In this document: piece after piece, positions 36,392 through 40,850 of the stretch
Layout of the letters: every line of letters starts with the position of its first letter
How positions within the stretch are numbered: the stretch's first letter is position 1
IMG/VR virus record: IMGVR_UViG_2737471829_000004
Length of the DNA stretch: 42,039 nucleotides
Source: a virus
Taxonomy: Duplodnaviria; Heunggongvirae; Uroviricota; Caudoviricetes
Strand: one strand, 5' to 3'
Position numbers and translations under genes: made by a program
The notes under the pieces: model-generated
Seen by the model: the letters and a program-made list of their open reading frames with translations, nothing else
Database searches by the model: none
What the model was told of the DNA's origin: nothing

Positions 36392-36580
36392 ATGAAATCA
36401 ATTCGCTGTAAAAACTGCAACAAACTGTTATTTAAGGCGGATTCCTTTGATCACATTGAAATCAGGTGTCCGCGTTGCAAACGTCACATCATAATGCTGA
36501 ATGCCTGCGAGCATCCCACGGAGAAACATTGTGGGAAAAGAGAAAAAATCACGCATTCTGACGAAACCGTGCGTTATTGA
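36392..36580 (+). CDS. com: Com, zinc-finger translational activator of mom
   Basis: 62 aa with CxxC...CxxC (CKNCNK...CPRCKRH); overlaps the 5' end of mom. Confidence 0.85.
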
Positions 36581-37247
36581 GTATGAAGGCCAGATTGTTG
36601 GCTATGGTTCAAAGGAGCTGCGCGTTGAAACCATATCCTGCTGGCTGGCCCGCACAATTATTCAGACAAAGCACTATTCCCGCCGTTTTGTGAATAACTC
36701 TTACCTCCACCTGGGAGTGTTCAGCGGACGCGATCTGGTTGGCGTTCTCCAGTGGGGATATGCCCTTAACCCCAACTCAGGTCGTCGTGTCGTGCTTGAA
36801 ACGGATAACCGGGGCTATATGGAGTTGAATCGCATGTGGCTACACGACGACATGCCCCGCAACTCTGAATCACGGGCCATCAGCTACGCGCTGAAAGTTA
36901 TCAGATTACTGTATCCGTCAGTGGAGTGGGTTCAGTCCTTTGCTGACGAACGCTGCGGACGCGCAGGCGTTGTGTATCAGGCGTCGAATTTTGATTTTAT
37001 TGGCAGCCATGAAAGCACGTTCTACGAGCTGGATGGTGAGTGGTATCACGAGATAACGATGAACGCAATTAAGCGCGGTGGACAACGAGGCGTGTATTTA
37101 CGGGCTAATAAAGAGCGTGCCGTGGTGCACAAATTTAATCAGTATCGCTACATCAGGTTCCTGAACAAGCGAGCAAGGAAGCGACTAAATACTAATCTAT
37201 TCAGGATCCAACCATATCCAAAATCAACTCTGACTAGTATCAAATAA
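36501..37247 (+). CDS. mom: Mom, DNA adenine modification enzyme (anti-restriction)
   Basis: Sequence from [33 protein letters not shown] onward recognised as Mu Mom; last gene before the right end. The true start codon is uncertain. Confidence 0.85.
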
Positions 37248-37306
37248 CTTATTTATTCCTGCTGAAAAGCAGCTCCTCATGGCATAAAATTGTTCACGTG
37301 AGTTTA

Positions 37307-37344
37307 AAATGACCAAATGGCAGTACAGTATTTGGTCATTTTAT
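37307..37344 (+). terminator. Hairpin downstream of mom
   Basis: 12-bp inverted repeat aaaatgaccaaa...tttggtcatttt with a large loop, followed by T residues. Confidence 0.45.
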
Positions 37345-37376
37345 GGGGTGAATTTTAAAGTCAAAACGATGGTAAG

Positions 37377-37718
37377 GTGCATATGAAAAAAATACTCATA
37401 GCAGTACTACTTTGCTTTGGTGTTCTTTCTGCTAATCAGGCAATAGCGGCTGTTACCTTAAGCGGTAAGTATCCTGCATGCATATCTGCTAATGAATTCG
37501 AGCGATTAAGCTCAATTTTGCAACACGAAGATCAAGAGGCGTTTGAAGAGATCTTTAAGACATCATGCTTTATGCCTAAAAAGGGGGTTAAAGTTGATAA
37601 AGTTGTTTCTATGGGGTGGACCAGTGGAGTTGCGCATGTCAAAGTTTATGTAAAAGGCAATCTTTACGATCTTTGGACTAACACCGAAAATCTTCAGTCC
37701 GAGAAGGCTGGTAAATAA
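37377..37718 (+). CDS. Small secreted protein of unknown function (cargo/moron candidate)
   Basis: 113 aa; signal peptide MKKILIAVLLCFGVLSANQAIA-AV; RBS aaggtg 5 nt upstream; locally AT-rich; lies inside the prophage between mom and attR. Confidence 0.5.
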   Translation: MHMKKILIAVLLCFGVLSANQAIAAVTLSGKYPACISANEFERLSSILQHEDQEAFEEIFKTSCFMPKKGVKVDKVVSMGWTSGVAHVKVYVKGNLYDLWTNTENLQSEKAGK

Positions 37719-37899
37719 CGCTGTAATCAACGTGTAATCACATCTCCTACCAGCTATCGCCTGATAAAGTTAGGTGATAGCTATTTCAATACTCTCTAGT
37801 TTCACTGAAAGCACGAAACTTAATACCTCCATTCCAGATTGCTTAATAATCGAGCATTTTTATCTTGAATGTTTTTGCGCGCTTTATCAGCCATACCCT

Positions 37900-38020
37900 A
37901 AGTGATCCCCATGTAATGAATAAAAAGCAGTAATTAATACTGCTGTTTCATTTGAAGCGCGAAAGCTAAAGTTTTCGCATTTATCGTGAAACGCTTTCGC
38001 GTTTTTCGTGCGCCGCTTCA
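37900..38020. promoter_or_regulatory. attR region with transposase-binding end sites (R1-R3-like)
   Basis: tgaagcgcgaaagctaaag, cgtgaaacgctttcgcg and the terminal ..tttttcgtgcgccgcttca match the recalled Mu right end. Confidence 0.7.
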
Positions 38021-38025
38021 CATGC
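38021..38025. repeat. Target-site duplication, right copy (CATGC)
   Basis: Identical to 919-923. Confidence 0.8.
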
Positions 38026-40850
38026 TCTTCCGTCACCCGGCCGCAGTTATCCAGAACATAAAGATATGATTCACCCTGCGGGTTAATGACTTCTGTCAGT
38101 TGCAGCGTGTCTTTATCGTAGCGGTACTGCCAGCGGTGGCCTTCACCGTCCGTTCGCGCCACCGGCAAATCGAACGGGCCGTACTCCATTGTCCAGACAA
38201 CACCATTGCCGTCCGTGTACGCCAGCAGGTTGCCGTGGCGGTCATAGCGAAATCCTTCCGCGCCGGTTCCAGCACGTTCAATGCCGCTCAGTTTATGGTG
38301 CTGCTGCCACTGTAACCGCACTGACTGACCGCCGGGGCCGCGCATCTTCACCGGCAGGTCGTGACCGCTGTATTCGGTGTGGTGTTCACGGCCCATCACG
38401 TCGGTGAGTGTTTCCGGCCGGTTGTGGTGGTCGTACTCTATGCCCAGACGCCGTTCATCCTGGCGGAATATTCCCGACAACAGCCCCTGAGCGGTGTACG
38501 CCAGCCGGGTCTCTTCGCCCTGTGGCGACACCAGGCTTACCGGCAGGCCGCGTTCATCGCACAGCTGTGTCCACGTCTGCCCGGCAGGGTCGGTGATGTT
38601 GCTGAACAGGCCGTGCTCATCATAGCGGTACAACCACTCCGCGCCGTCTGCCGCCGTGTAACGGCTTAACTGACCGTGTGCGGCGTTGTATTCAAACTTC
38701 TCCACCCGCCCGGCAGGGGAGTGGCGGGCCAGCAGGTGATGGAATTCATCCCATTCATACGTGGTGGTGCTGCCGTCCGGCGCTTCTTCCCGCAGAATAT
38801 TGCCGTCAGGATCATAGTAATAACGGTGAATGCCCTTGCCGTCCGTCACGGTGGTGCAGCCGTCACCATAGTCCAGCGTGGCGTTGTAATAGCCCTCCGC
38901 CCCGGTGACATTCACGCACCGGCCCTGTGCATCGTAGGTGAAACGGCTCCACGTCTGGTCGTTATCGGACCAGCGGATGATCCGGTCCGCAGCGTCGTAC
39001 TCATAAAACAGGTGGTAGTCCAGCCGCGCATCCGCTTCTGTCAGCCGCCCCCGCGCATCCTGTTCGTAGGTCGCCAGCGTCTGTATGCCGTTATCCGTGC
39101 GGTGAATGGCTTTCAGGTAGCCGCTGGCATGGTACGTCAGTTTAAGCCGGATCCCGTCGGTGTGACTGACACCCGTGATCCGGTACTGGCTGTCGCGCTC
39201 AAACGTGATGCGGTTGCTGGCGGTGTCACTCATCCCGCCCAGCATATACATCCGGTCACCGGGGCTGTGTGCCAGGCGGTCATCGCTGGTATCGTCAGTC
39301 ACCGGGTGGCGCAGACGCATTCCCGGAAAGGCGTCATAAAAGAAGCGGCTGCTCAGGGCATCACGGTCGAACAGCTCCAGGTAATCATCACGGCGGCGCA
39401 GGATGTACTGGGCGTGATACGGGTTAACCGCCGTATCACTTTCACCGTCGAAGGCGAAGTTCAGCGTGGCTCCCAGGCTGATGATATCCACCCGGTTTCC
39501 CTGTTCACGCACCCAGGCGTATTCGCTCCAGGAGTCGCTCCAGCCCACGCCGGTCAGGCCATGCAGCGGCAGTACAGAACTGTGGAAACGGGTGAAGGAG
39601 AGGGGGAGTGTCTGGCCCAGGGTGAAGTCGGTACGTTCGTCGCAGTACGCGCCGGTTACCGGATCGACAGGATCTGTTACCCATCTGATGACTTTATTGG
39701 CAATACTTTTTAACGACTTACCTGTTTTCCCCAGCAACGCGCCGAGCTTTGCCCCCAGCAGCTTCCCGCTTTTCCCCAGCAGGTTCCCCAGTTTGCCGAG
39801 TCTCGCCAGATTCTTCAGTTTTCCCAGCAGTCCCGCTGGCGGCAGAAGATAGCTGGCTATCGTTATTCCCCCCAGGATCATTCTCTGCCACGGCGGGAAC
39901 TCCGGCTGGATATCCAGATAGGTCACCTGCTCACCGCTAATAAAGACGTCCGGCGAACCTCCCACGATTGCTGCGCTGCACTCCAGTTTGTCGCCCTGGC
40001 GTGCGGCAGGCTGATTGTTGATAAAGACGTTGCTGCTGCCCTGGGCTATCCTCGGTGGTTTGTTCTCCTTGTCGCAGAGCGCCGTGTCCTCACCGGCTTC
40101 CGGGAAATCCACATCTTTTTTGATTTCGCCACGCCCGCCCACCATGGTGGCAAACTCCATTAATACCGGACCGGCGGGAAACAGAAGCGATGCGCCGGCG
40201 CTGACGCGATCCATAAAACCGGCATTGCTGTCCGTCAGGGTGATAACAGCGTTCCCCCAGGCCTTCGCCAGTGGTACTGCTTTTTCCGCTGCCGATTCAA
40301 GCAGGTCAGTGGCAATATCACCCCATGAGGGTTCCCCCTGTGGGACTTCAGGTATTGCTCCAGGTGGGGGAGGAGGGGGAAGGGTGACGGCGGCCCTGGC
40401 AGCGGGCTTTCCGTTAATTTTTACGTTTTCAGAACCGGTATTGATGGCGCCGTCCGTGTCACAAAAACTGTTTATCCATGACTCAAGCTGGTTCTGTTTC
40501 TCCTCCACATAATCACTCGCCTTATAGCTGGCATACATCAGCGCAGGCACCAGAACCAGCGCATAAGGGCCGGTGGCACAGGCGGCCATAATCAGGCAAC
40601 CTTCTGCGATGGTCACTATCGCCCCCAGCACGGCCCCTGCCAGCGCCCCCAAAAAACTCTTGTGCTGAATTTCATCGCCCAGCCTGGCGGCGGGGGGGCC
40701 AGACTTTTTTGATGCCAGCATCTGTGCAATGGCTTTGTCGTTGGCTGCCCGTTTCATCTGGCTGGCGACCATCGCCTGCTGTGACAGCATTCGCATTGCC
40801 AGCGTACCGCCTGCGGTCGCTCCCTGTGGCCCGCCTGGTCCTTCACTCAT
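38021..40850 (-). CDS. prePAAR-TM-PAAR-Rhs T6SS effector, 5' portion (943 codons), interrupted by the prophage
   Basis: N-terminal AARLGDEIQH (prePAAR motif AARxxDxxxH), hydrophobic helices (FLGALAGAVLGAIVTIAEGCLIMAACATGPYALVLVPALMY), PAAR-like motifs (VKINGKPAARAAV, VFINNQPAARQGD) and many YD repeats. The track ORF continues to 37887 by reading about 44 codons into the Mu right end. Confidence 0.8.

Follow-up and report, generated by a model that had tools for sequence, protein, structure and literature searches.

The prophage and its right end

A complete Mu-type prophage of 37,097 bp occupies positions 924–38020 of the window, the term used here for the whole 42,039-nt stretch of DNA analyzed, and the 5-bp target duplication CATGC flanks it on both sides. 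The left end reads TGTATTGATTCACTTGAAGTACGAAAA… from 924, and the right end at 38020 is quoted in the forms …GCGCCGCTTCA, …CGCCGCTTCA, and …CGTTTTTCGTGCGCCGCTTCA. Sites matching the MuA-binding consensus lie in the expected places, L1–L3 at 934–1096 and R3–R1 at 37949–38010. In silico removal of the prophage together with one CATGC copy restores an unbroken rhs frame of more than 1249 codons, and the prophage was therefore placed there by simple transposition into an rhs gene. The ends are made up of the following features.

919–923, unstranded: target-site duplication CATGC, left copy; the Mu left end begins at 924
37949–38020, unstranded: Mu attR, with three MuA-binding sites and the terminus
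37949–37965 (plus strand), 37972–37988 (minus strand), and 37994–38010 (minus strand): MuA-binding sites in attR, each a consensus match
38021–38025, unstranded: target-site duplication CATGC, right copy, with the interrupted rhs gene beyond

The interrupted rhs gene adjoins genes resembling a T6SS vgrG cluster in the host flanks (1–923 and 38026–40850). On the minus strand, a truncated Rhs ORF (37887–40850) runs with about 45 of its codons into the Mu right end.

The prophage differs from Mu between mom and the right terminus, where an additional segment is located.

36501–37247, plus strand: mom, stop codon at 37245–37247
37208–37226, plus strand: left copy of an imperfect 19-nt direct repeat of the mom 3′ end, CCAACCATATCCAAAATCA
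37220–37898, plus strand: extra (cargo) segment of 679 bp, delimited by alignment and absent from Mu and SfMu
37887–37905, plus strand: right copy of the imperfect 19-nt direct repeat, TCAGCCATACCCTAAGTGA; homology to Mu resumes here

From the mom stop codon to the right end at 38020 the distance is 773 bp here and 115 bp in Mu, which agrees with the gap of about 770 bp given in the first-pass annotation. The same annotation took mom to be normally the last gene before the right end; this is correct for Mu and SfMu but not for D108, which carries gp56 in the same slot. Both Mu and SfMu match the window at 98–99% identity as far as the end of mom; the alignment picks up again at 37887 and runs to the terminus, and the intervening DNA is absent from both. 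The C-terminus of mom is extended here (37220–37247), whereas that of Mu ends in …PYPK*, and the first part of the extension, with about 40 bp after it, is common to D108. The G+C content is 0.34–0.41 over 37200–37900, compared with 0.47–0.56 in mom and about 0.60 in the host flank, so that the lower G+C reported earlier for this stretch was confirmed. Extra DNA between elements that adjoin each other in close relatives and an atypical base composition are both marks of a moron.

The two copies of the 19-nt repeat are identical at 13 of 19 positions, and the right copy is the 3′ end of Mu mom, TGA stop included. Two histories would fit this arrangement: acquisition of the cargo segment through illegitimate recombination at the mom end, or its loss from Mu through a deletion between the repeats. 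Since recombination between the repeats would give exactly the canonical Mu arrangement, textbook Mu may itself be a deletion derivative at this locus. A search for the DNA donor of the cassette by blastn gave no match in phage or plasmid collections outside the present Mu lineage, and an Rfam scan of 37100–38100 gave no non-coding RNA match at E ≤ 1. A candidate fourth MuA-binding site inside the insert (37803–37819, CACTGAAAGCACGAAAC) has 2 mismatches to the consensus and is probably a chance match, because matches with at most two mismatches occur about five times per shuffled window.

The cargo gene and its flanking signals

The 679-bp segment holds one substantial ORF, referred to below as the cargo gene, and several putative expression signals.

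37262–37290, plus strand: sigma-70-like site CTGAAA-17-TAAAAT, weak (9/12), the only one upstream of the cargo gene
37305–37343, plus strand: upstream hairpin with perfect 14-nt arms (37305–37318 and 37330–37343)
37371–37379, plus strand: RBS of the cargo gene, GGTAAGGTG
37383–37718, plus strand: cargo gene, 111 aa from the likely start, ATG at 37383
37752–37782, plus strand: downstream hairpin, with 11-nt arms in the repeat scan and 14 pairs in the RNA fold
37926–37944, unstranded: terminator-like hairpin just inside attR, scored on both strands

A 113-aa ORF with its own RBS had been described at this place, and it is indeed present when read from an upstream GTG (37377–37718). The ATG at 37383 is also the start used by RefSeq in E. 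coli 2014C-3075, where the 111-aa product is listed as 'hypothetical protein' WP_050486066.1. The RBS motif ATGGTA(A/G)GG is common to homologs located in P2-like phages (see below), and the DNA homology between the Mu and P2 contexts stops about 15–25 nt upstream of the cargo start codon.

The ORF is a real gene under purifying selection, because homologs in other phages are conserved at 50–70% identity and pairwise dN/dS against these homologs is 0.06–0.25, with synonymous sites at or near saturation. Among 12 close relatives sharing 50–72% identity, 23 columns are invariant.

Both of the hairpins that the first-pass annotation noted on either side of the gene were recovered. The upstream hairpin (RNA dG −16.2, z −3.2) is flanked by an A-tract and a U-tract and may be a weak terminator, of bidirectional type, of com-mom or a 5′ stem-loop of the cargo mRNA. 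This AU-rich structure may also leak, and transcripts started at the late mom promoter could then extend into the cargo gene. The downstream hairpin (dG −19.8, z −4.8), which is followed by no canonical U-run, is the probable terminator of the cargo gene. The hairpin next to attR has a perfect 7-bp stem with a T-run on both strands (AATACTGCTG), and the corresponding stem in Mu contains mismatches (AATACATCTG). As for initiation, no promoter above chance was detected upstream of the cargo gene in the window (1 site found against 2.4 expected). The gene may be transcribed from a promoter of its own in the Mu context.

A polymorphic slot between mom and the right end

In Mu-like prophages of E. 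coli, the interval between mom and the right end was found in at least four states.

Empty: Mu, SfMu, KFu019, and RIVM_C019217
With D108 gp56, 148 aa: D108, N61, PhiR68_1, and Yersinia phage vB_YpM_3 (the vB_YpM phage inspected)
With a 167-aa hypothetical protein: RM13745 (L036, 3055–3558)
With the present 111-aa cargo gene: the window and E. coli 2014C-3075

The D108 gp56 gene, annotated as 'D108-specific protein' (phrog_15648; L001, 1698–2144), occupies the same slot in the same orientation as the cargo gene, and its product, which has no assigned function, likewise carries a Sec-type signal peptide at the N-terminus. At the left junction, D108 and the window have in common the extended mom 3′ end with roughly the next 40 bp, and diverge thereafter; the right junction of D108 differs from that of the window, and the two proteins are unrelated in sequence. 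Membership of the cargo protein in the gp56 family was considered and rejected, as gp56 matches phrog_15648 at 7.6e-88 and the cargo protein matches no PHROG. The presence of the same gene, with a known function, at this position in Mu or D108 had been named as a finding that would contradict a moron; neither phage carries it there.

The three cargo proteins found in the slot each have a Sec-type signal peptide and are unrelated to one another in sequence, which suggests that the end of mom may be a site where genes for exported proteins collect. The deposited 'complete genome' of Yersinia phage vB_YpM_3 (L021, 37046–39175) continues past the gp56-type gene into dtd and IS-like genes; this tail is most likely host DNA from headful packaging, rather than phage genome.

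Occurrence in Mu-type prophages and other phages

An identical cargo protein is encoded on 612 contigs from E. coli, Salmonella, Shigella, and Cronobacter. Ten places were inspected; all had the gene order gin, com, mom, cargo gene, Mu end, and no two shared a chromosomal site, which is what a lineage of transposing phages would show. The gene is nevertheless present in only 1 of 5426 complete E. coli genomes, with a mom-like gene in 102, and a close relative occurs in 1 of 185,579 species-representative genomes, at a single locus in Kosakonia. Many genomes of Shigella flexneri and S. boydii, that of M90T among them, have annotated versions truncated to 67–78 aa; presumably the gene has decayed or been interrupted there in remnants of Mu-like prophages.

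Relatives with 57–70% identity are carried by P2-like prophages of Kosakonia, Citrobacter, and Enterobacter and by Yersinia phage vB_YenM_42.18, where the gene follows gpD and ogr and is the last one before attP or the host junction. Upstream of these homologs lies the ogr terminator (up to 10 pairs, 6 of them G-C, then a T-run), and a strong intrinsic terminator of its own closes each homolog on the other side. On two P2-like contigs (L018 and L023), int, C, and cox come immediately after the homolog, so that on the circular map of the phage the gene falls between ogr and attP. To our knowledge, this interval is not among the described accessory-gene hotspots of P2, namely Z/fun and tin/old.

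In a second Mu-like group, the interval between gemA and mor holds a homolog of 52–54% identity on the opposite strand. The homolog and gemA converge, with a bidirectional terminator between them, and the homolog must therefore have a promoter of its own in this context. Further phage contigs encode remote relatives with 22–35% identity. Those of temperate Vibrio myophages and of one metagenomic contig belong to an early operon, beside a gene for an Rv2179c-like exoribonuclease, and rdgC is the upstream neighbor in the Vibrio phage. On another contig, a remote relative sits inside a tail-gene module, a placement that fits no single function neatly.

The same gene is thus found in otherwise unrelated phage backbones (Mu, P2-like, Mu-like at gemA-mor, Vibrio myophage, and metagenomic) and is horizontally mobile among phages. 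Sporadic and strain-variable occurrence, carriage by phages, and a position always at operon boundaries or genome ends are the behavior of a moron. The moron reading of the first-pass annotation has gained support from the lack of the segment in Mu and SfMu, the unrelated genes filling the slot elsewhere, and the homologs at boundaries of unrelated temperate phages. The cargo gene is very probably an accessory gene of the moron type, and the evidence supports regarding the cassette at 37220–37898 as a moron in the sense of Hendrix, inserted in a variable slot between mom and attR.

In temperate phages, the classical morons include lambda bor and lom, the morons of HK97 and HK022, and Z/fun, tin, and old of P2. 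The cargo cassette resembles them in being an extra gene between elements that are adjacent in relatives, in its atypical composition and flanking hairpins or terminators, and in its occurrence in unrelated backbones. It differs in that its own promoter in the Mu context is a candidate site only, not above chance, and the ogr-attP slot of the P2-context homologs is a different site from the P2 accessory sites Z/fun and tin/old. No functional information on the cargo protein, the mom-end slot, or the Yersinia phage homolog was found in the literature.

The encoded protein

Read directly from the sequence, the N-terminus of the cargo protein has the properties of a Sec signal peptide cleaved by signal peptidase I. 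The 22-residue peptide, MKKILIAVLLCFGVLSANQAIA|AV, is encoded at 37383–37448 and divides into MKK / ILIAVLLCFGVLS / ANQAIA|A. In agreement with the clear Sec signal peptide of the first-pass annotation, a basic n-region, a hydrophobic h-region, and an A-x-A cleavage motif are all recognizable; there is no lipobox, and a span of 10 residues has a mean Kyte-Doolittle hydropathy of 3.1. Cleavage after AIA (Ala22) would leave a predicted mature protein of 89 aa, 9.9 kDa, and a pI of about 7. Export of the cargo protein is highly likely.

An exhaustive search of 1.84 billion representative proteins returned 61 family members at E ≤ 1e-3, nearly all of about 100 aa. The family pattern is LKGGYPAC-S/T-E … GC … KVR-Y … LWT-x-EN-I/L, represented at the C-terminus of the cargo protein by DLWTNTENL. 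Two cysteines are nearly invariant across the family and correspond to C33 and C62 in the cargo protein, a pair that would fit a disulfide formed in the periplasm. A strongly hydrophobic N-terminal signal or anchor precedes the conserved domain in 58 of the 61 representatives, and the domain is therefore predicted to be consistently extracytoplasmic. In a few members, a membrane anchor replaces the signal peptide, and one of these anchors is preceded by cytoplasmic zinc ribbons.

The AlphaFold2 (AF2) model has a mean pLDDT of 77.7, with means of 83–95 for blocks of 10 residues over residues 31–100. It consists of an N-terminal strand, two helices, and a four-strand meander that closes a weakly SH3-like barrel. 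Foldseek of this model against the PDB returned nothing significant, and no solved structure of a relative was found by sequence. In BFVD, a structure search yielded three phage proteins of comparable length, all unnamed, at E < 1e-3. The best structural neighbors of the model, all weak matches, are bacterial SH3b cell-wall-binding domains of autolysins, NlpC/P60 proteins, and GW modules, which are, like the cargo protein as predicted, small extracytoplasmic beta-barrels.

Scans of the cargo protein and its relatives against Pfam, NCBIfam, PHROGs, and PADLOC assigned no meaningful family, and PADLOC gave no defense-profile match for the cargo protein or four relatives. Two remote relatives weakly match phrog_29411, a PHROG of unknown function. 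A match to the Stx2f B subunit at E = 0.026 was dismissed as chance similarity between signal peptides. The protein family is unannotated and, as far as we could find, undescribed. No catalytic signature was detected in the cargo protein, and it is therefore taken as a binding module.

Proposed function and alternative explanations

As an overall explanation, we propose tentatively, and at somewhat less than an even chance, that the moron encodes a periplasmic SH3-like binding module that serves superinfection exclusion or gatekeeping. The 111-aa precursor would be exported by the Sec pathway and cut by signal peptidase I after Ala22 to release the 89-aa periplasmic protein. The mature form, in which an N-terminal strand and a hairpin of two helices are predicted to accompany a small SH3-like beta-barrel, would probably be stabilized by a C33–C62 disulfide and would act as a binding module in the periplasm of the lysogen or infected cell. 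By binding peptidoglycan or a periplasmic component of the envelope, it could hinder cell-wall penetration or DNA entry by competing phages.

The assignment of the cargo protein as a periplasmic exclusion or gatekeeping factor is, taken by itself, a guess that we hold with considerable doubt. It is made because only phages, including several unrelated ones, carry the gene, because it lies in an early operon in some of them and encodes a domain predicted to be extracytoplasmic, and because Glo offers a precedent. An early operon is the usual place for exclusion genes. Envelope or periplasmic proteins that exclude superinfecting phages include T4 Spackle (Sp), T4 Imm, P22 SieA, T5 Llp, and phi80 Cor; the T4 genes sp and imm share with the remote relatives of the cargo protein an early-operon position, and the cargo protein is, like the exclusion proteins, a small phage-encoded protein that may act at the envelope. 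No relationship of the cargo protein to Spackle-type exclusion proteins, in sequence or fold, was found in the PADLOC, BFVD, and PDB searches.

Glo of the P2-like Vibrio phage K139 is annotated as a small periplasmic protein involved in phage exclusion, a role that Nesper and colleagues reportedly described in 1999. Like the P2-context homologs, it is encoded beside the attachment site of a P2-like temperate phage; its gene, however, lies across attP from theirs, in the int-cI lysogenic operon. Glo was also rejected as a homolog (hhalign probability 0.3%), and among the known exclusion or defense proteins tested (PADLOC profiles and, by hhalign, Glo), none is related to the cargo protein in sequence.

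Other readings were weighed against exclusion. The exported protein may instead be a lysogenic-conversion factor that alters the envelope to the benefit of the bacterium, through lysozyme inhibition, buffering of envelope stress, or colonization. Lysozyme inhibitors of this kind are exemplified by Ivy, MliC/PliC, and PliG, but neither Pfam nor NCBIfam gave a match to a lysozyme-inhibitor or virulence family. The wider family resides in phage contigs, including early and tail operons, which suggests a role in the phage life cycle, and the rarity of the gene (1 of 5426 complete E. coli genomes; 1 of 185,579 species-representative genomes) also argues against a benefit to the host, so that this reading appears unlikely. 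It is quite improbable that the cargo gene is a late lytic-cycle gene, co-transcribed with com-mom from the C-dependent late promoter through a leaky hairpin and acting in the periplasm late in infection, for example on lysis timing, by modulating a SAR endolysin, or by blocking adsorption or injection of progeny into lysing cells. The position directly downstream of mom in the same orientation, the lack of a convincing promoter of its own together with the AU-rich upstream hairpin, and the remote relative inside a tail-gene module are all consistent with late expression. However, the gemA-mor homolog on the opposite strand must have its own promoter, a strong terminator separates the homolog from ogr in P2-like contexts, and Mu, SfMu, and many other Mu-like prophages do without the gene.

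A non-functional passenger, or a spurious ORF left behind by illegitimate recombination, is effectively refuted. The imperfect direct repeat of the mom 3′ end that flanks the insert is a signature of such recombination, and the truncated copies of 67–78 aa in Shigella would also suit a dispensable sequence. These observations are outweighed by the dN/dS of 0.06–0.25 at saturated synonymous sites, the 23 invariant columns in 12 close homologs, the domain shared by 61 remote family representatives, and the identical protein on 612 contigs. The remaining probability falls to functions outside these readings.

Significance for Mu-like phages

Lysogen phenotypes, among them phage resistance, altered envelopes, and virulence, stem in large part from accessory genes at the ends of prophage genomes. 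Although the textbook Mu genome has no gene in the slot between mom and the right end, Mu-like phages carry variable cargo there, and in E. coli at least three unrelated signal-peptide proteins are encoded at this site. The phenomenon is familiar as that of a classical moron, and the protein family itself is new as far as we could find. The analysis defines a phage-borne family of small proteins, predicted to be exported, that match nothing in Pfam, NCBIfam, or PADLOC.

A broader and rather unlikely extension of the exclusion reading would make the prophage-end slots, mom-attR in Mu-like and ogr-attP in P2-like phages, a dedicated hotspot for exported anti-phage proteins. The family would then be a new and widespread class of periplasmic, disulfide-bonded, SH3-like gatekeepers, and D108 gp56 and the 167-aa protein of RM13745 would serve as analogs of unrelated origin. 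Should exclusion prove not to be the function, the cargo cassette would be a well-documented but ordinary moron. If the slot proteins are envelope-level exclusion factors, they would add a class of defense that current defense-finders miss, and would form an easily testable set involving one small gene, known phages, and a K-12 host.
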